DNA of 60,327 bases from NCBI GenBank assembly GCA_015494465.1, contig WGBD01000011.1:69553-129879 (forward strand), given 5' to 3'. The translations under genes and the position numbers were made by a program. Origin of the DNA: Candidatus Omnitrophota bacterium. Lineage in GTDB: Bacteria > Omnitrophota > Gorgyraeia > S143-82. Positions 8,020 through 60,164 of this stretch are shown in pieces; the stretch's first letter is position 1, and each line of letters opens with the position of its first letter. The notes under the pieces are model-generated. The model had not been told where the DNA came from, did not search any database, and worked only from the letters and a program-made list of their open reading frames with translations.

Positions 8020-8449
8020 GTCTTATCCTTATACCTGCGGACTCGACGAATTCCCTCGCCAACTCGTCTGGGTAGCCCTCCGAGATCACCACCTCCTTGA
8101 TCCCCGCGTTTATCAACATCTTGGTACATATTATACAAGGCTGGGTGGTTACATACATACTCGATCCCTTTAGACTCACCCCGTGCAGGGCAGCCTGTAT
8201 AATCGCGTTCTGTTCCGCATGCAATCCCCGGCAGAGCTCGTGTCTCTGCCCCGAGGGGACCTTTAACTGTTCCCTAAGACACCCTGTCTCTGCACAATGG
8301 GGGATCCCGGAAGGAGCACCGTTGTATCCGGTTGCCAGGATCCTGCGGTCCTTCACCACCACCGCTCCCACCTTCCGACGCAGGCAGGTAGACCGCTCGG
8401 CAACCAAAAAGGCAATACGCATAAAGTACTCGTCCCAATCCGGCCTCAT
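7985..8449 (-). CDS. dCMP deaminase (ComEB-type cytidine/deoxycytidylate deaminase)
   Basis: Zinc motifs HAEQNAI and [14 protein letters not shown]. Confidence 0.9.
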
Positions 8450-9465
8450 AAAAACTCCTTCAGCCTCACTCGGACTAAAACATTATCCAATTCAGCCAAG
8501 ACATCGTCAACGCTAATCGCCCTCAAACACTCAAAACCTTTCTCACAGCGATGGGCAAGGCACCTTTTGCAAGTCGCCTTGTGTATGGATCTGGCATCCA
8601 CATGCAAAGGTCTCCAGCGCGTAGGAGAAAGACCTGGGTCGTTTCGTCCAAATATTACCACCGAAGGGACATCTACCGCAGAGGCGATGTGGACCGGCCC
8701 AGAATCGTTGGACACGAGCACATCGCATCCCGCCAACAGGTAGACCAGATCTCCCAGATCTATCCCAACCTTATTCCTTATACGGGTAAGATACTGTGGA
8801 GGCACCTTCGATAGTATCTGCTCCGCCAAAGGCCTAACATAAGGAGCACCGATCAAGACCACATAATATCCCCTTTCCAGCAACCTTTGAACCAGCTCCG
8901 CATACCTCTCGATAGGCCACATCTTGGATGGACAGCTGGCATGGGGATGAACTGCCACCGTTATCCCCGGAAACAACTTCTCCACCCTACGATCGAGGTA
9001 GAGTTGCGGTCTGGGACTATCCCAACGATCTATACCCAAAAGCGGGAGAAAAAGCATATTGTATTGGCTCTCGTGCATCAACCCCAATGGCTTGGTGTGA
9101 GGCAGAGTCTTGGTCAAAAGGAGTTTACCCCCCTTTACCGCCCAACCTATGCGCAGGGGTATCCCGGACATTGCCAGCAAGAGGTGGAGACGGAGGTTTG
9201 GATTAAGAGCCACTGCCCCATCGTAGCCCCGCCCCCTGATCTGGCGGGCAAAGGAAAGCATCCGCCTCCAGGAGGACTTCAACTCCTTTGCAGGATAGAC
9301 GATAAATCCGTCTAAGCCTTTGACGAACCTTACCAGAGGAACCAAGGTCTCGGAAATAAGAAGATCTATTCTGGCGTCGGGAAAGTTTTTGCGCAGTTCG
9401 GATATAAAAGGGAGGGATAGAACGAAGTCACCTATTCTATCGGTTCGGCAGATCAGGAGATTCAT
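8446..9465 (-). CDS. Glycosyltransferase family 9 (heptosyltransferase-like)
   Basis: N-terminal [10 protein letters not shown] and C-terminal [21 protein letters not shown], typical of GT9. Confidence 0.8.
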
Positions 9466-10306
9466 CTGCCTTCTTCTCCGAAAGCTGTTTTATCTTAGTC
9501 AAAAGCCCGTCTAACGCGGAAAGCGTTTTCTCATCCAACTTGTCCTGATAGATCTTCTTAAATCTCTCGACGGCATCCTGCACCACATCTAACCTACCCG
9601 CACGCAACAAGAGAACTATCTCGGTGCGGAGATTCGCCAACTTTACCGCTACAGGGATCTCCTCATCCGATATAATAGCCTCGAGTTGTTGGATCGCCTT
9701 ATCCCTCTCTCCTCTGGCCAACGCGGTCAAAAACAGGCCCCGCCTGCCCACGAACCTCTTCTTGGGATCTTCGGCGGAGGCCAAATTAGAGTAGAACTGC
9801 TCAGCGCTATCGCAAAGGCCTTCCTGTCCCATCTTCGCCCCTACGAGACAGCGCAGAAAGGGAAACGAGTACCTCACCTGCTCGTTTTCGACCGCCTTCT
9901 CTGCCCGGTTCAATATCCAGAATGCAAGGTCCCAACGATTGAACCTCAGACTCGAGTTAAAGGCGAACCAATACAGCTCCAGCCGTTTTTTTGGATCGTC
10001 GTACTTCAACAGGGACTTGACATCCTCTGACCTGCCCTTTGCCAAGGCCAACAGTATCCTCATCCTTCGCACCGGGATGTCCAGATCCCTCTCCTTAGCA
10101 GTCTGTTCCAGCAACTGCAACACTCCAGACCACTTTTCGTACTCCACATCGGTCATATTCTCGCCGCTGGCTATCACCGGCCGGAGTTTCTGACCGATGT
10201 GGTATATCTCCCTCTCCAAGGCGTAGCGCTTGGAGCACCCAACCGCAGCTAACAAGATCAAGGAGAGCAGGACCCTGCCTGTGTGCTTCTTAGTAGCGGA
10301 CCTCAT
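9437..10306 (-). CDS. Probable lipoprotein, helical-repeat (TPR-like), function unknown
   Basis: Signal sequence with LAAVGC lipobox-like cysteine; the rest is helical and repeat-like. No family recognised. Confidence 0.45.
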   Translation of the reverse strand: MRSATKKHTGRVLLSLILLAAVGCSKRYALEREIYHIGQKLRPVIASGENMTDVEYEKWSGVLQLLEQTAKERDLDIPVRRMRILLALAKGRSEDVKSLLKYDDPKKRLELYWFAFNSSLRFNRWDLAFWILNRAEKAVENEQVRYSFPFLRCLVGAKMGQEGLCDSAEQFYSNLASAEDPKKRFVGRRGLFLTALARGERDKAIQQLEAIISDEEIPVAVKLANLRTEIVLLLRAGRLDVVQDAVERFKKIYQDKLDEKTLSALDGLLTKIKQLSEKKADESPDLPNR

Positions 10307-11063
10307 CTGCCAACCATCCTACCAATACCGCGTGCACGAACACATTGACGACAACAGTCCAGAGATCAAAAACCCCCATGTAGATAAAGACCAGTTCAGG
10401 GTACATCTTAACATAAGTCGAAGCCAGGATCGGGGCCTCTGCGTACAGGATCGGGATAAAAGAGGCAAAGGCCAAGAGCAATAACAAAAAGGCCCTGAAA
10501 AACAGCACCCCCGTCCACCTGAAGCCCTCAAAAAAGCCGATCACCCTTTCCCTCAGCACCATGTAAAACAGAGGGATTACCAATACAGTGTGGATCAAGG
10601 CGTTGAATAGGACCATAACGAGCCACATCCAGGGAAGCGATTTCAGATAGCGAGCGATCAAGGAAGGAAAGGCCTTTTGCCCCAGGAAAAAGATCAACAC
10701 ATACACCAATACATACAAGATCCCCACCCAAAAGCGTACACGAACCCTAGTACCTTTAAGATAATTCCACAGCATGACCACCACAAACAAGGAAGCGATG
10801 GAGAGCAGGATCACATCAAAAAACCAATTCGAAGCCTTGAGCGAGGAATACATCCAAAATATGTGTCCGGGATAATGGAGTGCAACTGGGCCCCAAAAAC
10901 GAGCTATTATAGGCCCGAATACCTTATTAAGGGGCCACTGAACTGCATAGAACAAGAGCAAGGCGTAGAGCCATTTGACGAGGTAAACCAATAAGAAAGG
11001 GACGAATAAAATCGGTCTCTTTATCGGGATGGCTAGAAAAGCAAAGATTCTATCTGCCCGCAT
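10290..11063 (-). CDS. Polytopic inner-membrane protein, function unknown
   Basis: 257 aa with about six long hydrophobic stretches by eye and no motif I can name. It overlaps the downstream lipoprotein gene (9437..10306) by 17 nt and starts 6 nt after the stop of the sugar transferase gene. Confidence 0.5.
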   Translation of the reverse strand: MRADRIFAFLAIPIKRPILFVPFLLVYLVKWLYALLLFYAVQWPLNKVFGPIIARFWGPVALHYPGHIFWMYSSLKASNWFFDVILLSIASLFVVVMLWNYLKGTRVRVRFWVGILYVLVYVLIFFLGQKAFPSLIARYLKSLPWMWLVMVLFNALIHTVLVIPLFYMVLRERVIGFFEGFRWTGVLFFRAFLLLLLAFASFIPILYAEAPILASTYVKMYPELVFIYMGVFDLWTVVVNVFVHAVLVGWLADEVRY

Positions 11064-11068
11064 CTACT

Positions 11069-11731
11069 TCACAGCCCCTTGCTCAAAAGCACATGCTCTA
11101 TTGTATCAAAAAGGATTCGTAAGTCTAACAAAAAACTGGCATTACGAATGTAAAACAGATCGTATCTCAACTTGTGCTTCACATCCTCGATACAAGAATC
11201 GTAGCGATAGCGCACCTGGGCCAGACCGGTAATTCCGGGACGGACCTCCAGTCTCTGCCAGTACCCGGGTATCTTCTCTGCCAGATGACTGGCGATCTCC
11301 GGCCGTTCAGGCCGGGGACCCACCAAGGACATGTCCCCCTTTATCACATTCACCAACTGGGGTAATTCGTCCAAATGGGTTGCTCTAAGAAACCTGCCTA
11401 TCCGCGTCACCCGGGGATCGTTCTGCATCGCCCACACCGCACCGCTGTGCTTTTCTGCGTCCTTCTTCATCGTGCGAAACTTGTATATGGTAAAGACGCG
11501 ACCCCACCGCCCCAGTCTCTTCTGGCGGTATATAATTGGGCCTGGGGAATCCAACCTTACCGCTATCCCTATCAAAACCATCAAAGGCAGAAAGAGCAGG
11601 AAGAGAAAACTTACCACCGCTACATCGAACATCCTCTTTACCGCTGGGTAAATCCCAAAGGGTACACTTAATGTGCTATCCCGTGACACCACACCTACGC
11701 TCATCGATCCACTCCAAAGTCCTCTTTTCAC
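11069..11731 (-). CDS. Small phosphoglycosyl transferase (bacterial sugar transferase family, WbaP C-terminal-domain type)
   Basis: PGPIIYRQKRLG...YKFRTM...DELPQL...GDMSLVGPRP...RPGITGLAQV are the signature blocks of polyprenyl-phosphate sugar-1-phosphate transferases. Confidence 0.9.
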   Translation of the reverse strand: MKRGLWSGSMSVGVVSRDSTLSVPFGIYPAVKRMFDVAVVSFLFLLFLPLMVLIGIAVRLDSPGPIIYRQKRLGRWGRVFTIYKFRTMKKDAEKHSGAVWAMQNDPRVTRIGRFLRATHLDELPQLVNVIKGDMSLVGPRPERPEIASHLAEKIPGYWQRLEVRPGITGLAQVRYRYDSCIEDVKHKLRYDLFYIRNASFLLDLRILFDTIEHVLLSKGL

Positions 11732-14700
11732 AACCCGGCAAAGGAAACCCTCGAGAGGTCAATTCCTCCCTTGGCCTTAACCGTCTGCCCTGCGGTGCGC
11801 CTTAAGATTGAAGAGGCTACCTCGTAGCCTATCGGCCTCCAACCACCGTAGAATGTCAGACCGCCGACCAACTCGCCTCCCAGGCCTTGGGCCATTATCA
11901 CCGATACCAACCAATCCTCCATGAGCCCACTTCCTAAGGCAAGTCTCCTCTCAAAGGTGGCCAGGTGCCACAACCTCTTCATCGCCGAGGCGTCCCGAAA
12001 CTCTGGAGACTCCATCAAGGTCCTCACAGCAGACCTAACCTGATCGGTAAACCCATCCCCATAATACGATTGCATCCTATCCAAGATTCCGTTAAGCTCT
12101 TCTATCTTCCGATAATCCCAAGAGTCATTCAAGACATTAAACCACACGAATTCCACAAAATCCTCCTCGTTCCGGCTAAGCTCCCGCACCGGGAACAACC
12201 ATTCGTTGGCATACCATCCCAGGAAGAGCTTTCCCCTGTGGTAGTACACGCCTATACGGGGCTGGATACCGTATCCCTTCGCACGATAGAAGACCTGGCG
12301 AGAGGCCTTGGCCAATCTCTCAAAACGATCCAAGTCCTTTTTGGTAAACAGGTCTTCGGGCAGAAGGCCACCCTTTACCTTCTTCTGCCAGATCTCGAAG
12401 AAGGACTCCGCCACCCTCACATCCTCTTTGCTGACCTCGAGGATGTCTACCTCGGGGATTTCACCCTCCCACTGCAGGCCGTTTAAAAGCAACAGGGATA
12501 CAAGATACCTGGCGAATACCGGGGACCTCTTCCTTACATGCTCGACAACCCGTCTCCAACTCTTGTAAGAGCGATAATTGTACTCGTCGACATCGTTCAA
12601 GGCCTCCACCAGAAGCAGTTCCCAATCCAATGCCTCCTCCAGCCTTTTCGCCAACTTAGAGGAAACGAAGATCGCTCCTCCCACCACAGAAAGAGCAAGA
12701 AAAGCGGAGATTATAGTTGTCTCATCAACTCCCCTTACAACCAGATAAACCCCCCCTGCCATCAGAAGTAATAAGCCAAGTAGGATATCAAGGTCTATAC
12801 GGCCAGTTGTACGTTCTCCATCACCCTTCTCCTTTCTCTGCTCCTTATCAGTGATGGTATAGCTACCCATCCATAAATTTTTGGCCACCTCTTCCAATCT
12901 CCTATAAAGCTCTTCCCTTTGCTGCATTGTCCCACCCCAAGCACCCAAGTAAGCCGTGCAGCAATATATAGCCATCCTATACTCGTTATCGTTATCGCCA
13001 GGCCTATCAGAAAGCGGAATCTCAACAGAGTTCAAAGGTATACGTATATAAGAGCCATATTGAAATTTTATTTCAAGTACCCCATCCTCCCACGAAATCT
13101 TTCTTACCTTCTTCCCAGCATCTTTCTCTATTTGCTCTATGTCCAATTCCCCATACCCAGGAGAAGTCAATCCATACGCTTCTGCCTCTCGACGAGACAA
13201 AACCTGCTCGAACTCTACTTTTCCTTCCTTCATACTATTACCTTCGATCACATACTCAGCCCTAGCATAGGAAATTGCTACCTTTTTCAATCTTTCATAA
13301 GCTTCCTCCCTATCGTCGAAACTCTCTCCTTTGGCTCCCCACTCTACTTTGACCCTCCAGGAAGTCCAACCCTCTTCCCAACTCTGACTAGCCCTGACAT
13401 GCTGTTTGACTAGCACATAAGAACCATCATTAAATTTTATATATCCATTCCCCAACTCTTTAACTTCTTTACGAGCATCCTGTTCTATCTGTTTTATATC
13501 TTGATCTTTACCAACGCTGGAGCCCCATAGTGAGTCCAGCTCGTCTACATGTGAATAACCATCTAGTTCAAATCTGCCTATCAAGAGCTCTTTCGGGTTA
13601 AAATGCCTCCTCTGCTCCAATTCTTCATTTGCTGCTTTTAATTCCGCCTCAAGTTCCCGCACGGGGTTTACAATCATATTGTTAATCATAACTAAGACCA
13701 ACCCACCACTCATACCAGAAAGTAGCAACGAGACAAGTTTCTTAAGGGCATCCACATCATCTGGTGCGAACTTAACAAATGCAGCTAATTTTCCCATGTG
13801 CAGGAAATCTGCCACATGCCCAATAATAGGAATCAAAAATCCGAACAAATGAGGGAGTAGAAAATAACTTGCCAGTGTCGATACCACAAATCCAAGGAAT
13901 CTAAGTCTAGACAATCGCTTATTAAGCGACCCAAGGTCAACTGCCCCACGATTCTTCCAATCCCCCAAATACCCCCCGTCCAAGAACTTCCGGCCCACTT
14001 CTAACAGTTTGTTCTTGCTCGCCTCGGCGCCTTTCGGATCCTTACCACTGCCTTCCACATAGAGCCTTGCCACCGGCTCGGTCCCGGAGAGCCTTATTGC
14101 AAACCAAGAACCATCTTCAAAGACCACCTTTACCCCGTCCAAAAGCACCACTTCCCTTATCTTCTTACCGGAGTCAGTCTCAATCCTATCCCAATTCACG
14201 AACCCGAATCTGGCCCGCAAATCCCTACGCGGGACCCTGTCTTGTCCTGCGGAGTAGTCCTTGAGGCGGGAGAACAGATCGGAAAGTGTCTTCTTCAGTT
14301 CAGGAGTCAAATTGACATTCTCCCTTTTGTAATCGTAGAACTTGCCAAGCACCTCTTTCTGCACATAAGACACCATCTCGGACATTGCGTTACCGTACTT
14401 CTTGAGAAAGTAGGCCTCCATAAGGACTGCCAAAGTGCTCATCATAATCCCGTCATCCCAGGTCGCGGTCCCCGGCAATCCTACATGGGCGCTCTCCTCC
14501 CCTGCAACCACGAAGTCCTCCGGATCCCAGAACGCCTTCATCCACTTGAATCCAACCTTGGTCTCCTCTGCCCTAGCTCCATAGTGCCGGGCCAGTGCCA
14601 AGGGCAGGTCAGAGGTGGGAACGGTCTTGGCAACTCCACCCTTGCGTCCGATGTCGTTGAAGAAAAACAATACCAGGCCTATGAACTGGTTAGCGGAAAC

Positions 14701-16779
14701 GAAGTTGCCCTTGGAATCTATCACCCCAAACCTGTCCGCATCACCGTCGAGGGCAACCCCCACTGCGGGAGAGGACATCGCCTTCACCTTCTCAGCAAGG
14801 AACCGGGTCCGACTCTGATCAGGCTCGGGATGACTGAGCCCACCGAAGTCCTCGCGGGGATCCAGTTTCAGGTCCTCTCCCTCAAGAACACGATCCTCTC
14901 CGAACATACCTTTTAGGACCTGCAAAATCACCTTACCGCCTGCACCGTGGAGGGCGGTGGGGATTATCTTTATGTCGTTTTCTTTTATATAAGTTATAAG
15001 GTCGCCAATCATCCCTTCGCCGAGACGCCCAGTCAGGGTCTTCTTTACATAATCCACATACCCCCTAATAAGTTCCTCGTGATCTAGGCGGATAGGTTCC
15101 ACCGGCTCAGCCTCGTAAGGCTCCGCAAGATCGTTTATGGACTCGTTCGCCCTACGGGCGAGGAGATCGGTAATCTCCTCTTCCGCGGCACCGCCATCGG
15201 CCGGGGTGACCTTAAACCCGTTGTACTCCGGGGGATTGTGGGAGGCGGTAAAGTTTATCGCAAACAGGGCCTTGTGTTTGGCGACCGCATAGGCCACCTC
15301 CGGGGTGGTAATAGGTTCGTCAAAGTACACGACCGGTATCCCGTAACGGCTGAGAACTTTTACCGCAAGATTCACGAAGTCCTTGCCCATCCTCCGCCCG
15401 TCTCTGGCGATGACCACACCTTCCCTATCACTGCCGTACTTACTCTGGAAGTAGGCCTTGTTCTCCAGGTAAAACCGGGCAAAGCCCTCCAATGCCTTCT
15501 CCATCTTTTTGAGGAATTTCTCTTGCCCTTCTTTATCCTCCGAATCGGGCATAGTGAACCTCCAGCCGGAGGTCCCAAACTTTATGATCTCCTCGGGAGA
15601 AAATGTCTTCTCGTATATCTCGCCTCGGGAATTTATCACCACCGCCTTATCCTTGGCGATAAATACGCCCCTTTCATCCTCCTTAGGGGCCCTAATCCGC
15701 TTGACTTTGCCAGACTTAGTGATAAATATAATCTCGTTACCGAACGGGCCTTTGAGTTTGAGGCCCACCCTACCCGGCGCCTCCGAGACGATTGCCAGAG
15801 GGGCCTGGGGAACAATCCCGGTACTATCTACATCACCGTAGACCCGAAAGGCAACCTGGGCCTTAACCGGTCCCTCACTGAGACCTATCTGGACGAGCTT
15901 GGTATTGGGAGCGGTGCTCAAGGGGGATGGGACCTTCAGCGGGATTACCTTCTCTGGTATCACTGTTCCGTTGAATCCGCCTGCATTCACTACCACAAAA
16001 GAGCTGTCATCTACCGCTCCCCGACGGTACAACTCCGCAAACTCCTTTAAGAAGTCCCTTCGGCTCCAGAAATCCTCACCCCCAGTAGGCAAGGCGTAGT
16101 TATCTACGGTAGCGTCCAAGACGGGAACCTTCCCCCGCAGGTGTTTTTTATACCATACCGCAAGGATCATCGACTGATAGGCCCTTCGAAGATCTGCAAA
16201 CTCCGGGGCGGTGTTCAACTCTTTTTCCAACTCTTCAAGGACACCTTTGAGGTATCCCTCGATCTTCGTCCCACCTTTTCCCTTTATCCTCAACCCTAAA
16301 GAGGCCTTCTCTATCTTGACCTCGTCTCCATCGTAGGTCACCCTTATCTCTTTGGGCTCTATCCACAACCTGAACCTCTGCTCACCCAGGTCCGAGGGCA
16401 TGAGAGACTGGCTGATAAGTTCCATCGCCCGTCTTTTTAACTCCAGGTCCGCAGAGAGCAGGGCCCTTCCCAAGGAGGTATAGGCCAAACCCTTACCCAC
16501 CACCATGGACTCGTCCACCAGGATGTTAAGGTTGACCCACCATTGCTGAGAAGGAACCGCCAAGGCAGTGAGGAAGTAGGAGAGTTCCCGCTTTAAGGCA
16601 TCCTTATCCGTGTTCTCGCTTACACCCAAGACGAATTGCCCATCGCTTATGCGCATACCCAACAAACCCGAGGACGCGGATACCAAAGAGGTGCTAGCCG
16701 AAGTATAAGCCAGTCCCAGTCCTGGCTGATTGAGTACCAAGGCTATTGCCAGAAACATCGAAATCAACCGATTAGACAC
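11728..16779 (-). CDS. Giant (1683 aa) multidomain protein: signal sequence + unknown N-module + alpha-D-phosphohexomutase domain + TM segments + degenerate tandem repeat + TM pair + unknown C-domain
   Basis: The GTG start at 16779 is preceded by AGGAGG, which overlaps the stop of the upstream gene. All PGM/PMM motifs are present: FGTSGWRF (aa 401), Ser loop TASHNPPEYNGFK (aa 511), metal loop DGDADR (aa 678), sugar loop GEESAHVG (aa 760) and phosphate loop RLSGTEPVARLY (aa 896). Hydrophobic stretches lie at aa 959-989, 1015-1037, 1328-1348 and 1355-1374. Confidence 0.85.
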   Translation of the reverse strand: MSNRLISMFLAIALVLNQPGLGLAYTSASTSLVSASSGLLGMRISDGQFVLGVSENTDKDALKRELSYFLTALAVPSQQWWVNLNILVDESMVVGKGLAYTSLGRALLSADLELKRRAMELISQSLMPSDLGEQRFRLWIEPKEIRVTYDGDEVKIEKASLGLRIKGKGGTKIEGYLKGVLEELEKELNTAPEFADLRRAYQSMILAVWYKKHLRGKVPVLDATVDNYALPTGGEDFWSRRDFLKEFAELYRRGAVDDSSFVVVNAGGFNGTVIPEKVIPLKVPSPLSTAPNTKLVQIGLSEGPVKAQVAFRVYGDVDSTGIVPQAPLAIVSEAPGRVGLKLKGPFGNEIIFITKSGKVKRIRAPKEDERGVFIAKDKAVVINSRGEIYEKTFSPEEIIKFGTSGWRFTMPDSEDKEGQEKFLKKMEKALEGFARFYLENKAYFQSKYGSDREGVVIARDGRRMGKDFVNLAVKVLSRYGIPVVYFDEPITTPEVAYAVAKHKALFAINFTASHNPPEYNGFKVTPADGGAAEEEITDLLARRANESINDLAEPYEAEPVEPIRLDHEELIRGYVDYVKKTLTGRLGEGMIGDLITYIKENDIKIIPTALHGAGGKVILQVLKGMFGEDRVLEGEDLKLDPREDFGGLSHPEPDQSRTRFLAEKVKAMSSPAVGVALDGDADRFGVIDSKGNFVSANQFIGLVLFFFNDIGRKGGVAKTVPTSDLPLALARHYGARAEETKVGFKWMKAFWDPEDFVVAGEESAHVGLPGTATWDDGIMMSTLAVLMEAYFLKKYGNAMSEMVSYVQKEVLGKFYDYKRENVNLTPELKKTLSDLFSRLKDYSAGQDRVPRRDLRARFGFVNWDRIETDSGKKIREVVLLDGVKVVFEDGSWFAIRLSGTEPVARLYVEGSGKDPKGAEASKNKLLEVGRKFLDGGYLGDWKNRGAVDLGSLNKRLSRLRFLGFVVSTLASYFLLPHLFGFLIPIIGHVADFLHMGKLAAFVKFAPDDVDALKKLVSLLLSGMSGGLVLVMINNMIVNPVRELEAELKAANEELEQRRHFNPKELLIGRFELDGYSHVDELDSLWGSSVGKDQDIKQIEQDARKEVKELGNGYIKFNDGSYVLVKQHVRASQSWEEGWTSWRVKVEWGAKGESFDDREEAYERLKKVAISYARAEYVIEGNSMKEGKVEFEQVLSRREAEAYGLTSPGYGELDIEQIEKDAGKKVRKISWEDGVLEIKFQYGSYIRIPLNSVEIPLSDRPGDNDNEYRMAIYCCTAYLGAWGGTMQQREELYRRLEEVAKNLWMGSYTITDKEQRKEKGDGERTTGRIDLDILLGLLLLMAGGVYLVVRGVDETTIISAFLALSVVGGAIFVSSKLAKRLEEALDWELLLVEALNDVDEYNYRSYKSWRRVVEHVRKRSPVFARYLVSLLLLNGLQWEGEIPEVDILEVSKEDVRVAESFFEIWQKKVKGGLLPEDLFTKKDLDRFERLAKASRQVFYRAKGYGIQPRIGVYYHRGKLFLGWYANEWLFPVRELSRNEEDFVEFVWFNVLNDSWDYRKIEELNGILDRMQSYYGDGFTDQVRSAVRTLMESPEFRDASAMKRLWHLATFERRLALGSGLMEDWLVSVIMAQGLGGELVGGLTFYGGWRPIGYEVASSILRRTAGQTVKAKGGIDLSRVSFAGL
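12871..13506 (-). repeat. Degenerate protein-level tandem duplication (two units of about 90 aa) inside the giant gene
   Basis: Unit 1 is aa 1092-1178 (DIKQIEQDARKEVKEL..YIKFNDGSYV...REEAYERLKKVA). Unit 2 is aa 1211-1303 (DIEQIEKDAGKKVRKI..LEIKFQYGSYI...REELYRRLEEVA). The similarity is visible in protein only, not as a DNA repeat. Confidence 0.55.
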
Positions 16780-16789
16780 ACCACACCTC

Positions 16790-19700
16790 CTACCTTAAAC
16801 GGACCTGGGAAAGCAACAGACCACCCACCTTCTTTTCACCGGTGGATTCCTCTTTAGATTTACGGATACCGGATGGATGAAGGATCCGCTCAAGCAGCTC
16901 TGGCACCTCTCTACTCTTTCCGCTGTAGAAAGGCCCGAATGTGCGCAATATCTGCTCATCAGACATCCCATCGACTTCTTCCTCTACTTCATCCAAGGTG
17001 GCATAGATCTGCTTGTCTCCTCCCGCTTGAGCCCGCTGTCCCTCTATAAGGCGGTGCAGGGCCTCCCTTATACGGCCCGGATCCAACCTGCCTCCACCAT
17101 CCGGAACGAGCTCCCCACTGGGGCCCACCTCAGGGTAAGGTGCGTCTTTTCCCCTACCGGGCAGGATTATCCCTTGGGCCTCTGCGACCCGGAAGGAAAG
17201 ACCGGTCTTCCTCTCCAAGGTCCTCAGGAGTGTATTTACCCTCTCCAACGAGCCCTTTTCGAGCTTCTTCACATTCAGGAACTTGGCATGGTCGGATCCC
17301 GCCACATAAAGCAGGACAAAGTCCTTGGTGCCCAGCCTGCTCTCCAATTCGTTAACCAGATAAGGCACTATCTCCTCACCAGTCTTGTAGAAGTGCTCAG
17401 GATCAGAAAACGGAAGGTGGGTGAACTCCACCAACTCTGCACCAAAGACGCGGGACAACAGGGCCTCAGTGATGGGTCCCCTGACCAGGGCATCGGAGAG
17501 CATCGGCTTGCGGGGATCACCGTTATCAACGCTCACCACCACTCTATCCACCTGCCCGCTGGCCAATAGGGCAGCGACGACCCATATGTGACCGTTCTGC
17601 CAAGGATCACCCTTCATAGGCAGATAGGCTATCCGCAGACTGGACTTCTTTAAGGGATCTACCTCACCAGTTTCCACCTTCCTGGCTATCTCTTCGAAAG
17701 TGGCCTTCATGTTCTTATAGGACAGTTGCATCTCCTTGAGATCCAAGAGAGTTTGGATGGAGCCTTCCGCAGAGGCAGACAAAGTCAGCTCCTTCAAGAC
17801 CTTCTTCCTGAAGCTCTCTATTGCTGGCAGGCCCTTCTCCGGAGAATCCGCATCTGCGATCTCCTTGACAGCACTGTAGACCTCCTGAGAGATCTCTCCT
17901 CTCAATACCAGGGTATCTATCTCCCCAAGTAGGTCTTTCAACTTTTTCTCAACCGCCTTATCGTTGGAGACCTCTACCCCGAACAGGGCCCTGCTGTTGT
18001 CGTTAAAGAACTTCTCCAGATTCTGCATCCCCTGGCGGACATTGGCTACCACCTCGTCCTTGCTGGTGGGGATGCCCAAAGGCGTTACATCCTGGAAGAA
18101 CCTTTTCTCCACACTTGCCTTGGCCTCCCTCCAGAGAAGGACATTCCGCAACCTTAATAGAGCCTCAACGAGGTCCTCTTCTCCTCTCTCCCTGGCAGAA
18201 TCTATCCTACTAACCAAGCCCTTGCCGATCGCGTCCAAGACATTGCCGTCTATTTCGTCTTTCTCGAACAATTCTTTTACATAAGGCTTAAGAGAATCTA
18301 CGAGTTCAACGGATGGCTTTCCCCCTCTGCGCTCAGCAATCATCTCATCCACCTTCTTCAAGAACACCTCTGCGATCTCCCTGCCCCTATCCTTGCGCTC
18401 TCTCAACTCCTCCAGTCTCTTCTTCTCATCCTCATTAAGTGTCCCCTCTTTCGCGCGCTCCTCCAGGACCTCCAGCCCTGACCAGCGCCAGAAATAGGCC
18501 TTATCTATCATGGCCTTTACGGGTGCCGGGACCAGATGGGGCCCCTTCTGATTCCTCACCCGGGTGGAAGAGGAGGCAATCAACTGTCGTAGGAAGTGCA
18601 CCTGGGGTACTATCCGCCTTAAGATCTCCTTCTCCTCCTCGGGTAGTTCCTCACCGGGCCTCTCCGAGAAGACGAGACCCTTTATCTCTTTGAGGCGATA
18701 ACTCATTATCTTGCCGACCGTATCCAGACGGGCCACCGCTGTTGCCCTGTCTTTGAGCTTACCTACTAAAGAGAAGGTAAAAATACCCTTACTGTCTCTG
18801 ATTATGACCGCGTTGGATATGTTGGAATAAAAGGGATTGTCCTTACTATACTTCTCGACGAACTCGTTCACGAATTCTTTGGATATCTCAAGGGGTTTAT
18901 GGGTAAGGTTTACTATTAAGACATTCTTTCCTATCGCATCCTGCGCAGATATGCCCTTAAACATCACATCCCCGTATATGTGGACCAACTTGGGATCGAG
19001 GCCGAGTTCCCCGGCCCTGTTCTTATAACCACCGTCGGTTGCAACCTCGTCGTCCTTCTTCACCGGAGGCACATCCGATTCCAATACCGCACCCGCATCG
19101 GAGGCGGTGGAATCCTCAAGGGATCCAGACATGGGCTGCAGCTCTTCGCCAACCTTATTGGGCAGGTTGGTAAATACCTCACCTCCACCTTCTACGCTCA
19201 TCAGACCGTCATCCATACGATTAAGGAGGTAGTCGGAGGCAAAGGCACCCAAGAAGCCTACCCTGTTCACCTTAACCGCCCCTACATCCGGCAAAGTGTA
19301 GCTGTCCACCAGACTGGCAAGGCGAGACTGCTTATACCTTTCCTTCAACGCCTCTTTTGCCCATCCTGCAAGGAGCATCGCGTAATAGGCCTTCCTGAGA
19401 GGGGCAAATTCCTGGGAATAGTTTATCGCCCGCTCTATTTCGGGTATCACCGTCTCCTTCAGGATAGACTTTATCTCCTCCTTCAGATCCTCGGGTATAT
19501 CCGCGTCCTCTATGGAGACCTCCACATCTATCCCTGCCTCCTTGATGTACAGTTCGTCCTCGGTGGCATAGACCTCCATCGCCCCCGGCACCATCCAGAA
19601 CCTAGGGGAGAAGCCGTCAACCCCCAAGCGCGCCAGCCTATCCCACAGCCCTTCCCCCGTGGGGCTATCAGGGGACATCAACCGGTTGACCAACAACTTC

Positions 19701-20086
19701 ATCCTGAGGTCGGAATCCAGCATAACGTGTCCCAATTCGGTATATTCTAGCCCGTCTCCTAATAGTTTGGTCTCGGGATTAAAAAGGTATAGATCGGCCC
19801 ACCAGTTCTCGGTAGGAATGGTCAGGGCAGAATAGAAGTAAGAAAGGATCCTTTTTGCCTCCTGTGATTCCGATAATTCTTCTTTACCCACACCAACGCC
19901 GTCTTCCCTTCGCCAGGCAAAGGAAATTCCATTCGCCCCGATCCTCAAACCTACCAACACAAGCGAAGAATCCTCTCTTGCCAGAGAGACCTTGGCACAG
20001 GCAACCCCTAGAGAAACGACCAAGGCAAGGGCTAGACCCAACAAAACGACCAACCCCGTCCCGATTAAGAGTCTACTTCCTCGCAT
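16790..20086 (-). CDS. Giant (1098 aa) protein: signal/anchor sequence + unknown N-module (paralogous to the next gene) + long charged helical region + NadD/cytidylyltransferase-like domain
   Basis: ATG at 20086 is preceded by AAGGAGG. The N-terminal hydrophobic segment is aa 6-30. The C-terminal region has GDPWQNGH (aa 826-833, resembling the GxFxPxHxGH nucleotidyltransferase motif), LLYVAGSDHAKF (resembling the NadD GADS block) and GIILPGRG. Confidence 0.75.
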   Translation of the reverse strand: MRGSRLLIGTGLVVLLGLALALVVSLGVACAKVSLAREDSSLVLVGLRIGANGISFAWRREDGVGVGKEELSESQEAKRILSYFYSALTIPTENWWADLYLFNPETKLLGDGLEYTELGHVMLDSDLRMKLLVNRLMSPDSPTGEGLWDRLARLGVDGFSPRFWMVPGAMEVYATEDELYIKEAGIDVEVSIEDADIPEDLKEEIKSILKETVIPEIERAINYSQEFAPLRKAYYAMLLAGWAKEALKERYKQSRLASLVDSYTLPDVGAVKVNRVGFLGAFASDYLLNRMDDGLMSVEGGGEVFTNLPNKVGEELQPMSGSLEDSTASDAGAVLESDVPPVKKDDEVATDGGYKNRAGELGLDPKLVHIYGDVMFKGISAQDAIGKNVLIVNLTHKPLEISKEFVNEFVEKYSKDNPFYSNISNAVIIRDSKGIFTFSLVGKLKDRATAVARLDTVGKIMSYRLKEIKGLVFSERPGEELPEEEKEILRRIVPQVHFLRQLIASSSTRVRNQKGPHLVPAPVKAMIDKAYFWRWSGLEVLEERAKEGTLNEDEKKRLEELRERKDRGREIAEVFLKKVDEMIAERRGGKPSVELVDSLKPYVKELFEKDEIDGNVLDAIGKGLVSRIDSARERGEEDLVEALLRLRNVLLWREAKASVEKRFFQDVTPLGIPTSKDEVVANVRQGMQNLEKFFNDNSRALFGVEVSNDKAVEKKLKDLLGEIDTLVLRGEISQEVYSAVKEIADADSPEKGLPAIESFRKKVLKELTLSASAEGSIQTLLDLKEMQLSYKNMKATFEEIARKVETGEVDPLKKSSLRIAYLPMKGDPWQNGHIWVVAALLASGQVDRVVVSVDNGDPRKPMLSDALVRGPITEALLSRVFGAELVEFTHLPFSDPEHFYKTGEEIVPYLVNELESRLGTKDFVLLYVAGSDHAKFLNVKKLEKGSLERVNTLLRTLERKTGLSFRVAEAQGIILPGRGKDAPYPEVGPSGELVPDGGGRLDPGRIREALHRLIEGQRAQAGGDKQIYATLDEVEEEVDGMSDEQILRTFGPFYSGKSREVPELLERILHPSGIRKSKEESTGEKKVGGLLLSQVRLR

Positions 20087-47055: not shown

Positions 47056-47062
47056 TAAAAAA

Positions 47063-47138
47063 TCGGGGCGAGAGGATTCGAACCTCCGGCCTCTGCGTCC
47101 CGAACGCAGCGCTCTAAACCAAGCTGAGCTACGCCCCG
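47063..47138 (-). tRNA. tRNA-Pro (anticodon CGG)
   Basis: Reverse complement: CGGGGCG TA GCTC AGCTTGGTTTA GAGC G CTGCG TTCGGGA CGCAG AGGCC GGAGG TTCGAAT CCTCT CGCCCCG A. The cloverleaf folds by hand with a 7-bp acceptor stem, a T-loop TTCGAAT and the anticodon loop TT-CGG-GA. No CCA is encoded. Confidence 0.9.
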
Positions 47139-47156
47139 ATTATTCCATTTTACTCG

Positions 47157-48489: not shown

Positions 48490-50004
48490 TTATCGCTTTA
48501 CATTTAACTTGTTCACTGCATTCACGTAGGCCTTCACGCTGGCCTCCACTATGTCTGTACTGGAACCGTGGCTGTTTATCACCTGTCCCTCACCGAAGTC
48601 CACAGTGATGCTGGCCTCCCCCATGGCGTCCTTTCCCGAAGTCACCGCCTGTATATTGTAACTCAAGAGCCTACCCGGACGACCGGTGATCTTATCTATC
48701 GCCTTATAACAGGCATCCACCGGACCATCCCCTTGGGCGGTCTCGCTGTAAACAGTATCGCCAAACTTCAGGTACACCCGAGCAGTCGGGAGCCCATCCT
48801 TTGGGATGGTCACTTCTATACCCTCCAACTGCCACTTCTCCACGTCTACCCGCATAGTGGATTCCACCAAGGCGATGAGGTCCTCGTCAAAGACCTCCTT
48901 TTTCCTGTCCGCCAGGCGCTTAAACTCCTCAAAGATCCTGTCCAGCTCCTCCTTGGACAGGTCGAAACCGAGCTGGTGCAGACGCTCAGCCAGGGCATGA
49001 CGACCCGAGTGCTTGCCCAAGACCAGCTCGTTTTTGTCCAGACCGATGTCCTCTGGGGACATTATCTCGTAGGTCTGACGATACTTTAACACCCCATCCT
49101 GGTGGATCCCTGACTCGTGCCTAAAGGCATTCTTGCCCACTATCGCCTTGTTAGGAGCCACTACAAAGCCGGTAAGCCTACTTACGAGCCTACTCGCCCG
49201 GATGATCTCCCGGGTATTTATGGATGTCTCCACGCCGAAGTAGTCCTTCCGGACCTTAAGGGCCATCACTATCTCTTCCATAGCAGCGTTCCCCGCCCGC
49301 TCACCAATACCGTTGACGGTGCACTCCACCTGCCTTGCACCCGCCTTTACCGCGGACAAGGAATTGGCTACCGCCAATCCCAAGTCGTTGTGGCAGTGCA
49401 CGGATATCACCGCCTTGTTGATATTAGGCACGTTGTTGAGGATGTCCTTTATCAACTGCCCAAACTCCTCAGGGATAGCGTATCCCACAGTGTCGGGTAT
49501 ATTGATCGTGGTAGCCCCTGCGGAGATCACTGCCTCTATTATCCTGTACAAGAAGTCCCTTTCACTACGAGAAGCATCCTCCGGAGAGAACTGGATGTCG
49601 TCAAAGAATTGGCGGGCATACTTCACCGCCTCCACCGCTATCTCCAGGACCTCCTCCGGTCTCTTCTTTAGCTTAAACTCCATGTGAATAGGAGAAGTAG
49701 CAATAAAGAGGTGTATCCTCTTGCGCTCCGCAGGCTCCAAGGCGGAACTGGCAGAATCGATGTCCTTCTTCACACAGCGAGACAGCCCACAAACCGTGAC
49801 TCCCTTCACCTCTTTAGCTACCAGATTGACCGCTTTAAAGTCCTCCGGGGAAGAGACCGGAAAGCCTGCCTCTATCACATCCACCCCCAAGCGCACCAGC
49901 TGGTGGGCGATCTCCAACTTGCCCTGCGAATCCAGTGCAGCCCCGGGAGCCTGTTCTCCATCCCGGAGGGTAGTGTCGAATATCATTACCCTATCTGCCA
50001 CCAT
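48490..50004 (-). CDS. leuA: 2-isopropylmalate synthase
   Basis: FDTTLRDGEQAPG, HCHNDLGLAVANS and HESGIHQDG, plus a C-terminal LeuA allosteric domain; 504 aa. Confidence 0.9.
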   Translation of the reverse strand: MVADRVMIFDTTLRDGEQAPGAALDSQGKLEIAHQLVRLGVDVIEAGFPVSSPEDFKAVNLVAKEVKGVTVCGLSRCVKKDIDSASSALEPAERKRIHLFIATSPIHMEFKLKKRPEEVLEIAVEAVKYARQFFDDIQFSPEDASRSERDFLYRIIEAVISAGATTINIPDTVGYAIPEEFGQLIKDILNNVPNINKAVISVHCHNDLGLAVANSLSAVKAGARQVECTVNGIGERAGNAAMEEIVMALKVRKDYFGVETSINTREIIRASRLVSRLTGFVVAPNKAIVGKNAFRHESGIHQDGVLKYRQTYEIMSPEDIGLDKNELVLGKHSGRHALAERLHQLGFDLSKEELDRIFEEFKRLADRKKEVFDEDLIALVESTMRVDVEKWQLEGIEVTIPKDGLPTARVYLKFGDTVYSETAQGDGPVDACYKAIDKITGRPGRLLSYNIQAVTSGKDAMGEASITVDFGEGQVINSHGSSTDIVEASVKAYVNAVNKLNVKR

Positions 50005-50129
50005 CTACACCACTCCCTTCCTCTTTAAAATTTAGGTATTATACAACCAAAATAGAGATCAGGGGAAGGCCTATTTTCCTCAGATTATAAGACAGATTCT
50101 TTCAGAAAGATTTTTGTCTCATTGGGGGG

Positions 50130-51551
50130 CTAGTAAGCGCCCTTGGCAGAAAGAACCACCCAAACGGTCTTTGCCAGGATCATAAAGTCAAGCCAAGGGG
50201 ACCAATTGAGCACATACCACACGTCGGTCTCTATCCTGAACCGGTAATCCGTATCACTCCTGCCTGAGACCTGCCACAACCCAGTGATGCCGGGGCGGAC
50301 CATCAGATAATACTGGGCATCTTCCCCGTAGAACCTATCTATCTCCTCCTTAGTGACCGGTCTTGGGCCCACCAAAGACATATCCCCCTTTAGCACATTG
50401 AACAACTGCGGGAGCTCATCTAACGAGGTGCGCCTTAAAAACTTCCCCAACGGCGTAATCCTAGGATCATCGCTCAACTTCCTGTTCTCCTCCCACTCCC
50501 TTGCCTTCTCAGGGTCATTTTTCAGTATCTCATTCAATCTCTTATCCGCATCCTTGTACATCGTCCTGAACTTGTAAACAAAGAAGGGCCTGCCTTTATA
50601 ACCAATCCTCCTCTGGAGGTATATTATCGGTCCTTCAGAGGTAACCTTTACTAACAGGGCGACGATCAGCAGAAGCGGAGAAAGTATTACTATCCCCAGC
50701 GAAGACAAAACCACATCCATCGCGCGCTTTAAAAACCTATTCCGAGAGTAAAGCAGATTATTCCGCAAGTGGACCAGAAGTATGTTGTCCATAAACGGAG
50801 GGATTATCTCCGCATTCAAGAGGGAAATACCCTTTACCCCCGGCATAAACAATACCTTGCGCGAGGAAAGGTGTATCTGATTGACGAGGTCTATGACATC
50901 CTCCCCGGGCAGATCGGGCAGGGCCACCATAATCGTCCCCGCATCCACTGCCCGGGCAATCCGCTTAAACCGCTTTACCCCTATAAAAGCCTTAAACCTG
51001 CGTCCCGCCACATCCACATACTTACCCGGCACTTTATCGTCCACGAAACCCACTATGTTGTAACCCATCCCCTGCTCCTTCAAAATATACGAGGCACCGG
51101 ACAAAGCCACATTATTAATCCCCAAAATGAGTAGATTATCCCTGTATATACCCAACCTGCTTAAAAGAAGTCTCGTCAAATAGCGCACCACAGGAGATAT
51201 CACCAACAGTGCAAAGAACCACAACAGCAAGAAAAGCCGCGATATATCGTATATCTTGAAGGCAGAGGTAAAGGCCAGAAACAATATCTCCGCCAAGAAA
51301 AGATCCTCAACCGTATACTTTACCTCCACCCAGAAAGGCACACGCTTAACATAGACACCCCGGTAGAGGTCTACCAGAATCACAAATAGAAAATACAAAA
51401 ACGGCAGGAAATGTATGCGAGAATAATCCACCTGCCACGGCTTCACCAACCCACGCAACAACAAAGCCACCCAAAAGGCAATAATTACACTAAGAAACGT
51501 GGAAAAAACTAAAGAAGCAAAGAATATTAATTTGTTTAGTATGACACGCAT
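50130..51551 (-). CDS. Large polyprenyl-phosphate glycosyl-1-phosphate transferase (WbaP/EPS initiating enzyme type)
   Basis: Four to five N-terminal TM helices, a central Rossmann-like region, and a C-terminal sugar-transferase domain (GPIIYLQRRIG, YKFRTM, DELPQL, GDMSLVGPRP, RPGITGLWQV). Confidence 0.9.
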   Translation of the reverse strand: MRVILNKLIFFASLVFSTFLSVIIAFWVALLLRGLVKPWQVDYSRIHFLPFLYFLFVILVDLYRGVYVKRVPFWVEVKYTVEDLFLAEILFLAFTSAFKIYDISRLFLLLWFFALLVISPVVRYLTRLLLSRLGIYRDNLLILGINNVALSGASYILKEQGMGYNIVGFVDDKVPGKYVDVAGRRFKAFIGVKRFKRIARAVDAGTIMVALPDLPGEDVIDLVNQIHLSSRKVLFMPGVKGISLLNAEIIPPFMDNILLVHLRNNLLYSRNRFLKRAMDVVLSSLGIVILSPLLLIVALLVKVTSEGPIIYLQRRIGYKGRPFFVYKFRTMYKDADKRLNEILKNDPEKAREWEENRKLSDDPRITPLGKFLRRTSLDELPQLFNVLKGDMSLVGPRPVTKEEIDRFYGEDAQYYLMVRPGITGLWQVSGRSDTDYRFRIETDVWYVLNWSPWLDFMILAKTVWVVLSAKGAY

Positions 51552-51570
51552 GGAAAATTATTAACGAGTG

Positions 51571-52545: not shown

Positions 52546-52580
52546 TCCCTAAGCTATTTCTTAATGAGAAGGCAACTTTA

Positions 52581-53603: not shown

Positions 53604-53633
53604 ATCTCTTTCCTTAGATATTTAAACGATTCT

Positions 53634-54905: not shown

Positions 54906-55024
54906 ACCATAGACTCCTAATTCATTGGCAGACTCCCATTAAAACTACACCTCAGGTATTCAATCCGTAGCCCACAGAGATTAAAGCTATCTCACCAATT
55001 CTGTATCCTGCATTAATTAAAAGA

Positions 55025-57290: not shown

Positions 57291-57387
57291 TCTAATTGGG
57301 CTCTCTAGTCTGAGCTTTCTTACTACTAGCTACAAGGGAACCAACATGCACAATACACGGAAAGAGGTCTAATCCAATAAAGTTTAC

Positions 57388-58673: not shown

Positions 58674-58823
58674 GTCCTACTGTCCTCCCCAGATAGCCCA
58701 AACGCCTTCTTCTAATAGCTAATCCCTGTAGATAGGAAAGTTCTAACTTATTTCCAGATCAAGCTCGGCATTATTTTTTCCCACTTCTACTGTTATTACA
58801 TATAATCGTATTCGTATATCCGA

Positions 58824-60131: not shown

Positions 60132-60164
60132 CTCTCTAAAAATGGAGAATTCCGGCCCATATTC

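Follow-up and report, generated by a model that had tools for sequence, protein, structure and literature searches.

A domain repeated in two neighbouring Omnitrophota proteins belongs to a very large, mostly actinobacterial family

The window analysed here, the whole of a 60,327-nucleotide stretch from a Candidatus Omnitrophota bacterium, contains two adjacent minus-strand genes: gene B (16790..20086, 1098 aa, from the ORF listing and its translation) and gene A (11728..16779, 1683 aa, with a GTG start 10 nt past the B stop). The initial annotation, made by eye, had described a module of about 200 aa at the N-termini of both "giant" proteins, a word which is exaggerated for 1683 and 1098 aa. 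Its coordinates (A aa 37-232, nt 16084-16671; B aa 43-267, nt 19286-19960; minus strand in each case) are correct and its 23 identities in 57 positions were recounted exactly; a second count of 13 in 20 should read 12 in 20. The formal pairwise alignment, which it had named as a possible refutation, is highly significant. BLASTP of the full proteins aligned A aa 21-278 with B aa 26-312 (97/294 identities, 33%, E=3e-29), and the two modules scored 297 by Smith-Waterman, against 36 +/- 5.4 for shuffled sequences (n=300, z=48). The similarity begins right behind the signal peptides, as had been noted, and the rest of the two proteins is indeed unrelated apart from a short C-terminal motif (next-best BLASTP segment, E=1.0). 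That the resemblance is due to chance or composition has a negligible probability: the modest 33% identity is all that speaks for it, and it is refuted by the BLASTP result, the shuffle test and a family search giving thousands of module homologues, together with a confident AF2 model of the module.

The shared domain is longer than first described. The structure model gives B aa 42-304, the HMM matches cover B aa 38-317 (5e-84) and A aa 54-278 (1.9e-64), and the first β-hairpin of the A module begins near aa 37. It is thus confirmed, from the protein sequences, that A and B carry a homologous domain of about 260 residues directly behind their predicted signal peptides. The duplication is old, because similarity at the DNA level is essentially absent, a single 56-nt stretch at 73% being all that was found.

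Protein B is identical (100%) to the database protein P0002, and its full-length AF2 model has a pLDDT of 81. It consists of a signal peptide, the module, an α/β domain, a long helical domain, a NadD/PPAT-like nucleotidyltransferase domain, a disordered linker and a C-terminal GG tail. On the minus strand, the signal peptide (MRGSRLLIGTGLVVLLGLALALVVSLGVACA, 19994..20086, about aa 1-31) has one hydrophobic segment (Kyte-Doolittle 2.84) and a positively charged n-region, followed by the module copy (19175..19963, aa 42-304, delimited by BLASTP against A, HMM and AF2), the nucleotidyltransferase-like Rossmann domain (17147..17644, about aa 815-980, placed by orthologue invariants, profile matches and AF2) and the tail GGLLLSQVRLR (16793..16825, aa 1088-1098), conserved across orthologues. 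Protein A, with the orthologues P0004 (77% identity) and P0098 (62%), has a signal peptide, the module, a β-rich linker, PGM/PMM domains I-IV, a TM pair, a repeated soluble region, a second TM pair, a C-terminal domain and a GG tail. Also on the minus strand, its signal peptide (MSNRLISMFLAIALVLNQPGLGLAY, 16705..16779, about aa 1-25), conserved in both orthologues, has a 12-residue h-region and then GLA-Y, and the module copy lies at 15946..16671 (aa 37-278, by BLASTP, HMM and alignments). The phosphohexomutase follows at 13999..15582 (aa 400-927, by Pfam and motifs), the TM segments (aa 958-1036 and 1330-1372), which enclose the repeated soluble region, at 12664..13908 (by hydropathy scan and internal repeat), and the tail GGIDLSRVSFAGL at 11731..11769 (aa 1671-1683, by tail comparison). 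The hydropathy scan placed a K/R-rich stretch, NKRLSRLR, before the first TM segment of A. The predicted signals are SP+TM for A and SP-only for B, and signal-peptide-like starts were recognized by eye and hydropathy in both and in all orthologues with complete N-termini.

The module is not peculiar to A and B: it belongs to a very large family, for the most part actinobacterial. An exhaustive HMMER search gave 7,472 cluster representatives, of which 4,083 reach E<=1e-30, and the family members that could be named or located among those examined are actinobacterial. The initial annotation could not assign the module to any family, which holds for curated families, but it overlooked this one. 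Pfam-A 2025 and NCBIfam 20.0 have no family over A aa 1-399 or over B at E<=0.1, barring a weak NadD match (E=0.066, B aa 471-534); 31 modules scanned at E<=1 gave scattered noise, the best being DUF5802 (0.038, in 6/31); a PADLOC 2.0 scan gave no match; and the module region of the actinobacterial members is likewise without a curated family match. The module profile found nothing significant among PDB sequences (best E=0.076, phage gp15, 75 residues). The AF2 model of the B module has a pLDDT of 87.4 and a pTM of 0.86, and Foldseek with this model returned no PDB entry at E<=0.001 (best E 0.15, TM 0.14); in BFVD it matched only one entry, an unannotated stretch of a J-domain protein from Tupanvirus (E=4e-4, TMq 0.39). 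A well-known fold such as a solute-binding or LolA-like one, which the initial annotation had named as a possible trivial explanation, is not what the module maps to: searches by sequence and by structure model gave no significant PDB match to either. No relatives were found on viral contigs. The module is thus absent from curated families and solved structures, although thousands of proteins share it.

Eight polar residues are invariant or nearly so across phyla (T116, D126, K130, R162, N222, R231, Y234 and D304 in B numbering). D126 and K130 stand at i and i+4 on one predicted helix, a spacing which in the model is compatible with a structural salt bridge; D126, K130, R162, N222, R231 and Y234 may just as well belong to a catalytic or ligand-binding site.

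The actinobacterial members examined are built as a signal peptide, a variable head, the constant module and a C-terminal membrane anchor. The modules of 195 members are alignable in all pairs, with about 50% identity across the sampled genera, and the N-terminal regions of the same members form 25 or more unrelated BLAST clusters, with only 8% of pairs sharing a match. Among the heads, Pfam recognises XOO_2897 deaminase, Col-Pyo (colicin-type) DNase and Ntox5. An N-terminal hydrophobic signal segment is present in 166/197 full-length members and a C-terminal TM segment in 172/197, at a median of 32 aa past the module, and 98% of the TM-bearing members have a net-positive tail behind it (mean +5.4). 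Moreover, exactly two Cys residues, at two conserved columns, occur in 99% of a related set of 195 modules, the pattern that a disulfide would give. From the signal peptide, the C-terminal TM segment with its positive tail and the Cys pair, the module in these relatives is clearly predicted to lie outside the cytoplasm. In the Kitasatospora locus L004 the module gene is directly preceded by a gene of SUKH-4, an immunity-type family; no recognisable immunity gene was found in the actinobacterial loci L013, L015 and L016, which have only small unannotated ORFs or none, nor was one found in the window. By their predicted domains, the actinobacterial relatives combine variable toxins with a constant region in inverted order. 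A and B carry no toxin domain; their cargo consists of a mutase and a predicted nucleotidyltransferase.

The initial annotation had suggested looking for modules at the head of other enzyme fusions. Among the Omnitrophota-type relatives, which come from Omnitrophota metagenome bins, only two fusions were found, with a phosphohexomutase (A-type) and with a NadD/PPAT-like nucleotidyltransferase (B-type). Residues 400-927 of A match Pfam PF02878, PF02879, PF02880 and PF00408 (E 8.6e-25 to 1.8e-9) and keep the catalytic motifs intact (phosphoserine loop TASHNP, metal loop DGDADR, sugar loop GEESAH and phosphate loop RLSGTEP), by which this region is assigned to the α-D-phosphohexomutase superfamily; in NCBIfam, Arch_GlmM (3.4e-51) is under its curated cut-off and all equivalog scores are below theirs. 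In the nucleotidyltransferase domain of B (AF2 pLDDT mostly >85), DPWQNGH replaces HxGH, the first His being Gln, a GSDH motif is present, and an SSTxxR-like motif stands about 320 residues upstream of QNGH. P828, H833, D857, G930, D932 and H933 are invariant across seven orthologues. The orthologue P0035 carries HLAH and matches TIGR00482 NadD (2.5e-7) and TIGR00125 (6.5e-5); matches of the B domain to PPAT in the PDB are weak.

The short C-terminal motif shared by A and B, a GG(L/I)(L/D)L(S/G) strand, forms the extreme C-terminus of 11/11 complete Omnitrophota-type proteins. In B-type proteins it is always the C-terminal end, with G1088, G1089 and L1090-1092 invariant in seven orthologues, and the A-type orthologues from L003 and L005 share with A the tail KGGIDL(S/G)RVS. 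No other plausibly coding ORF among 416 from the window and related loci has it. The motif resembles the GG(I/V)DF strands which occur at the module start in 196/197 and at the module end in 187/197 actinobacterial members, and MAFFT spontaneously places the tails on the last strand of the module. In the full-length AF2 model of B, the tail has a pLDDT of 46-63 and is not confidently docked in cis onto the module.

A and B belong to a single tightly packed gene string. Downstream and co-directional (8446..11731, minus strand, from Pfam, NCBIfam and translations) are a Bac_transf phosphoglycosyl transferase (11069-11731), whose start overlaps the A stop, a 257-aa polytopic membrane protein (10290-11063) and a 289-aa helical lipoprotein (9437-10306), both known from their translations, and a GT9 glycosyltransferase (8446-9465, by Pfam/NCBIfam). 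In the loci L001 and L002, B-type genes are followed by Bac_transf, membrane protein, lipoprotein and GT9 as in the window, and in L005 unannotated ORFs match in size and order.

The explanation preferred here, held tentatively and as plausible rather than probable, is that the module is a Sec-exported extracytoplasmic α/β domain, the constant carrier or docking part for interchangeable enzymatic cargo, by which A and B would be co-localised at the envelope. An old duplication would have placed the module on two cargoes, the phosphohexomutase of A and the nucleotidyltransferase of B. After signal-peptide cleavage both modules may bind a putative common, conserved envelope partner or each other, and the C-terminal strand, as a copy of the edge-strand motif of the module, may join this pairing, whether head-to-tail or by linking A with B; both enzymes would thereby come together at the envelope beside the glycan-assembly machinery. 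For Omnitrophota, a position outside the cytoplasm is inferred, and so are docking and the part played by the tail. The docking, targeting or assembly function proposed by the initial annotation fits the pattern of a constant module with unrelated cargo and the tail motif, but the AF2 model without confident tail docking does not bear it out. Extracytoplasmic co-localisation is also puzzling, because sugar phosphates and NTPs, the substrates of the mutase and nucleotidyltransferase, are cytoplasmic and Bac_transf and GT9 act at the cytoplasmic face. In addition, the NKRLSRLR flank and the positive-inside rule would make the mutase of A cytoplasmic, which counts against the preferred explanation.

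Alternatively, the hydrophobic N-termini in Omnitrophota would be uncleaved tethers, and the module would scaffold mutase and nucleotidyltransferase at the inner membrane face, from where an NDP-sugar, possibly NDP-heptose, would be channelled to Bac_transf and GT9. The HxGH nucleotidyltransferase family includes heptose-1-phosphate adenylyltransferase, the downstream GT9 is a "heptosyltransferase", the mutase motifs are intact, genes of the string overlap at their stop and start codons, and in A the positive charges that precede TM1 and follow TM4 point to cytoplasmic large domains. Such a scaffold is nevertheless quite unlikely, since the A h-region of 12 hydrophobic residues with a GLA-Y cleavage-type site is too short for a TM helix, signal-peptide features are kept in orthologues with complete N-termini, and the module is extracytoplasmic in the actinobacterial relatives, a change of compartment being rare within a domain family. 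It is very unlikely that the module is itself an enzyme or autoprocessing domain, releasing cargo by cleavage or acting on an envelope polymer, with the duplication reflecting a shared catalytic step. The polar residues kept across phyla, the release step that an anchored toxin-headed protein would need, and the roughly 50% identity among actinobacterial modules, compatible with an active site or partner that is conserved, are in its favour; no catalytic family is similar by sequence or fold, a nucleophile motif is not evident, and the helical D126/K130 pair would suit a salt bridge.

The module may instead be a delivery or translocation domain that moves or presents the fused enzymes to another cell, a doubtful reading. 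Actinobacteria would use it as the invariable delivery part of polymorphic toxins with an inverted layout, the toxin N-terminal and the anchor C-terminal, and in host-dependent Omnitrophota it would bring mutase and nucleotidyltransferase into a partner or prey cell holding their substrates. Some Omnitrophota are regarded as host-dependent or predatory nanobacteria. The cargo substrates are cytoplasmic in both phyla (DNA or nucleotides; sugar phosphates and NTPs), yet the proteins bear export signals, and one Kitasatospora member has its SUKH-4 neighbour. The best PDB fold matches, although non-significant (E>=0.15, TM ~0.14, probability <=0.08), are repeatedly the α-pore-forming toxins MakA, MakB and MakE. 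In a preprint (10.64898/2026.06.07.730766), multi-enzyme proteins with signal peptides are interpreted as surface-exposed. Against delivery, an immunity gene is unrecognisable in three other actinobacterial loci, the C-terminal TM anchor and short linker hold the module at the membrane of the producer, the tight linkage to glycan genes of the cell itself speaks for a housekeeping role at the envelope, and no relatives were found on viral contigs. In its boldest form, likewise unlikely, the module and the GG-strand motif would together be an unrecognised cargo-delivery device of two distant phyla, making inverted surface-anchored toxins with N-terminal warheads in actinobacteria, and in Omnitrophota active sugar-nucleotide enzymes that are exported and either joined head-to-tail or passed on to a partner or prey cell.

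Compared with polymorphic toxin systems as outlined in the survey of Zhang et al. 2012 (PMC3482391), the actinobacterial relatives likewise join a constant region to interchangeable toxin domains, with one SUKH-4 neighbour, but the canonical layout is reversed, the toxin being the N-terminal head and the constant module and anchor C-terminal; a term search of the greater part of that survey's text found no description of the inverted layout. A and B differ from the systems outlined there in bearing sugar-metabolism enzymes, without toxins or an immunity gene. The ClyA/MakA-family α-pore-forming toxins (PDB 6w08, 6dfp, 6ezv, 6tao), the top-ranked fold neighbours, have long helices and a β-hairpin like the module; the fold match to them is not significant (E 0.15-2, TM 0.11-0.14, probability <=0.08) and is a lead only. 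As for the cargo, A aa 400-927 has all four PGM/PMM Pfam domains and catalytic motifs of α-D-phosphohexomutases and the C-terminal domains of B-type proteins weakly match NadD and cytidylyltransferase models, but unlike the known enzymes both are fused behind a module predicted to be exported, and B departs from HxGH nucleotidyltransferases in its QNGH and in the distant upstream position of its SSTxxR-like motif. Finally, in the long multi-enzyme, signal-peptide- or TM-bearing Omnitrophota proteins of the same preprint (bioRxiv 10.64898/2026.06.07.730766), PGM/PMM domains recur in a "sugar metabolism" module, and SP+TM and SP-only proteins make up 39% and 9% of the catalogue; neither a module at the N-terminus nor a tail motif at the C-terminus turned up in a term search of its text. 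A and B, although just 1.1-1.7 kaa long, resemble those proteins in having metabolic enzymes predicted outside the cytoplasm and present the same paradox.

The neighbouring minus-strand genes B (20086 to 16790, 1098 aa) and A (16779 to 11728, 1683 aa, GTG start) are separated by an intergenic gap of 10 nt, and both encode proteins in which a signal peptide is followed by a common N-terminal module. The initial annotation had proposed this shared module from alignment by eye, and formal pairwise alignment bears it out: in BLASTP of the full proteins, A aa 21-278 and B aa 26-312 have 97 identities in 294 positions (33%, E = 3e-29), the second-ranked segment reaching an E-value of 1.0, and the two modules have a Smith-Waterman score of 297, as against 36 +/- 5.4 in shuffled sequences (z = 48). 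With such values, a chance or compositional origin of the resemblance is out. The module coordinates of that annotation were correct and its count of 23 identities in 57 positions was exact, and a stretch credited with 13 identities in 20 positions has 12. The likeness of the two module regions is almost nil at the DNA level, so the duplication is ancient. In addition, modules of the A type (joined to a phosphohexomutase) and of the B type (joined to a NadD/PPAT-like nucleotidyltransferase) are 32% identical, while either is only about 22% identical to the actinobacterial modules described below, which places the duplication within the Omnitrophota-type lineage. No third copy was found in the window.

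The homology extends far beyond these two proteins and takes in a large, uncurated family of domains. It has no match in Pfam-A, NCBIfam or PADLOC, nor among PDB sequences. Word-indexed searches performed poorly, giving a single match (the database protein P0001) with a profile of the A and B modules and zero matches with a nine-sequence Omnitrophota profile, so HMMER had to be run exhaustively against 1.84 billion cluster representatives; this gave 7,472 matches at E <= 1e-3, of which 4,083 had E <= 1e-30. The module is thus carried by more than 7,000 protein clusters and has neither a curated family model nor a solved structure. The AF2 model built from a 31-sequence alignment is confident (pLDDT 87.4, pTM 0.86) and consists, in order, of an N-terminal β-hairpin, three helices, a long β-hairpin, two helices of about 25 residues, more helices and a last strand. 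Foldseek found no significant neighbour of this model in the PDB (best E = 0.15, TM 0.14), the top ranks being occupied repeatedly by Mak α-pore-forming toxins with negligible probability. Only the BFVD entry A0A6N1NXY0_2 came out as a significant structural neighbour of the module model (mf9b05cce0cf7); it covers part of a “J domain-containing protein” from Tupanvirus soda lake (E = 4e-4, probability 1.0, TMq 0.39, 280 columns). A scan of viral contigs found no relatives of the module.

The signal peptide of A is short (MSNR, a 12-residue h-region and GLA-Y), and the module (aa 37-278) is followed by a β-rich linker and a complete phosphohexomutase (aa 400-927, Pfam PGM_PMM I-IV), in whose translation the motifs TASHNP, DGDADR, GEESAH and RLSGTEP are all intact. 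Hydrophobic segments occur in two pairs, at aa 958-1036 and aa 1330-1372, on either side of a soluble region (aa ~1037-1329, window 12793-13671), which contains two copies of an internal repeat, DIEQIEKDAGKKV...IKF.DGSYIR, and most of which is missing from the A-type orthologue P0098. The C-terminal domain of A gave nothing significant against PDB sequences.

In B, the signal peptide stands ahead of the module (aa 42-304 in the full-length AF2 model, which has an overall pLDDT of 81), and the same model has an α/β domain (~aa 360-530), a long helical domain (~aa 530-810) and a Rossmann-like domain (aa 815-980). The last is weakly tied to NadD and cytidylyltransferase models by way of the B orthologue P0035. 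A hydropathy scan found no further transmembrane (TM) segment beyond the signal peptide, comparison of full-length B and of its C-terminal region with PDB sequences gave nothing significant, and Foldseek with the full-length model was uninformative. The sole NCBIfam match of B is NadD (E = 0.066, aa 471-534). NadD-like motifs occur in reversed order, SSSTRVR (aa 505-511, window 18554-18574) preceding DPWQNGH (aa 826-833, window 17588-17611), and some 320 residues separate the ISSTxxR-like motif from the HxGH-like motif downstream, in which the first His is Gln. This order suggests either two nucleotidyltransferase-like domains, one of them degenerate, or a permuted arrangement. B also contains the sequence LGVAC, which agrees with the loose PROSITE lipobox; the lipobox-like Cys is missing from the orthologues, and on this ground we rejected B as a lipoprotein.

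Among the best 150 matches, only two cargo types are joined to modules of the Omnitrophota kind, the B type (P0035, P0040, P0056, P0068, P0126 and P0129) and the A type (P0004 and P0098). Pattern scans for the B-type module gave four loci in genomes and four in metagenomes, and the genome scan puts B-type genes in Candidatus Omnitrophota metagenome bins and in one bin labelled Planctomycetia. Judged by these relatives, the organism of the window probably belongs to Omnitrophota. Downstream of the B-type gene in two related loci (L001 and L002), as in the window, are genes for a Bac_transf protein, a polytopic membrane protein (about 260-275 aa), another product of about 290 aa and a GT9; in L005 the match is one of ORF sizes and order. 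The window, L003 and L005 are the only loci with an A-type gene. It precedes the B-type gene in L005 (3-6411) and follows it in the window (11728-20086), and B alone is found in L001 and L002 by gene calls and in L006-L008 by BLAST of flank ORFs. Because of this differing order and the B-only loci, the A-type gene looks like a mobile or lineage-specific addition beside a conserved B-type gene. The window's copies of the two unannotated genes in this row (9437-11063), syntenic with the B-type genes, encode a 257-aa polytopic membrane protein and a 289-aa helical lipoprotein (AVGC lipobox), and these may be membrane and periplasmic partners of the module system.

Throughout the window (1-60327), all long coding-like ORFs and the single tRNA-Pro (47062-47139) are on the minus strand and the GC skew is uniformly negative, which makes the full 60 kb look like a single co-directional stretch. 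The GC content falls from ~0.52-0.56 to 0.34-0.36 in 50001-60327, with 0.44 in the 2-kb bin 50001-52000, and the ORFs from 50130 onward form a polysaccharide cluster with a full-length Bac_transf protein having a CoA_binding_3 domain, GT2 (two copies), a second GT9, GT4, a methyltransferase, a hexapeptide acyltransferase and a Wzx-type flippase. This low-GC cluster looks like a surface-glycan island that is horizontally acquired or fast-evolving.

In all of the 11 complete Omnitrophota-type proteins, a disordered linker leads to a terminal GG strand motif. Its form is (P)GGLLLSxVxxR, with close variants, in the B type (window 16793-16825 in B) and KGGIDL(S/G)RVS(F/L) in the A type (window 11731-11769 in A). 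In a survey of 416 ORFs from the window and related loci, only module-bearing proteins had this motif, one spurious frame aside. A related motif, GG(I/V)DF(S), is present in the actinobacterial modules themselves, on the first strand in 196 and on the last strand in 187 of 197; the last-strand versions in the window are GGGEVF in B and AGGFNG in A. Looser copies stand ahead of the TM pairs of A, at aa ~947 (RGAVDLGSLNKRL) and ~1325 (TGRIDLDIL). MAFFT puts isolated B-type tails on the last strand of the module, and this placement, together with the likeness of the motifs, suggests that tail and module may pair by β-strand. The tail has low confidence (pLDDT 46-63) in the AF2 model of full-length B and is thus not confidently docked in cis. 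Paired with the N-terminal module, the strand motif at the C-terminus gives a concrete hypothesis of assembly.

About 240 family proteins were retrieved, and, the Omnitrophota-type proteins excepted, all those named or located in a genome belong to Actinomycetota, including Streptomyces, Nocardia, Kitasatospora, Micromonospora, Actinoplanes and Sinomonas. Their lengths range from 650 to 800 aa. An N-terminal signal-like segment is present in 166 and a C-terminal TM, at a median of 32 aa beyond the module, in 172 of the 197 full-length members, 98% of those TMs being followed by a net-positive tail (mean +5.4); furthermore, 99% of the 195 modules in a related set have exactly two cysteines, in two conserved columns. 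Therefore, the actinobacterial module is placed outside the cytoplasm. The modules all align in pairs at about 50% identity; the approximately 300 residues ahead of them form at least 25 mutually unrelated BLAST clusters, and only 8% of pairs share a match. The heads that Pfam recognises are toxin domains, namely XOO_2897 deaminase in many members, colicin/pyocin DNase in P0050 and Ntox5 in P0237. In a Kitasatospora locus (L004, 7474-10163), a SUKH-4 gene lies directly upstream and overlaps the start of the member gene; three other loci (L013, L015 and L016) have no recognisable immunity gene. NACHT/NB-ARC genes adjoin two other actinobacterial members.

A constant module with variable cargo, signals for export and a paired tail motif lead us tentatively to infer that the module is an extracytoplasmic carrier or docking domain. 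The chief difficulty is that the mutase, the nucleotidyltransferase and the toxin heads of the relatives need cytoplasmic substrates, and this raises two serious rivals. The module could be a delivery domain that hands its cargo to another cell, which would bring cargo and substrates together and which we regard as unlikely. In Omnitrophota only, it could instead be a scaffold on the cytoplasmic face supplying the adjacent Bac_transf and GT9 enzymes, as the K/R-rich flank ahead of the first TM of A might indicate; the signal peptides are conserved, however, and the topology of the family contradicts such a placement, so that this is more doubtful still. A catalytic or autoprocessing module, to which the invariant polar residues, such as D126, K130, R162 and R231 of B, could point, appears the least probable of these. 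The carrier or docking reading shares its paradox with Omnitrophota long proteins generally, in which enzymes are predicted outside the cytoplasm, PGM/PMM domains recur often and 39% combine a signal peptide with TM (bioRxiv 10.64898/2026.06.07.730766). Defining the module would give a handle on this puzzle of metabolic enzymes behind signal peptides in long envelope-associated proteins, and would put an annotation on thousands of actinobacterial proteins now called “hypothetical”.

Two new leads are the most useful, the co-occurring C-terminal GG-strand motif and the link to the actinobacterial toxin-headed proteins, which, with signal peptide, toxin head, module and TM anchor in this order, look like inverted polymorphic toxins. 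Literature searches gave no paper on actinobacterial proteins that start with a toxin and end with an anchor, and searching the 2012 polymorphic-toxin survey (PMC3482391) by terms turned up neither the module nor the inverted layout. Compared with the systems of that survey, the family would be set apart by its order of parts, in which the toxin leads and the constant module and anchor follow, and defining the module would flag this inverted toxin architecture.
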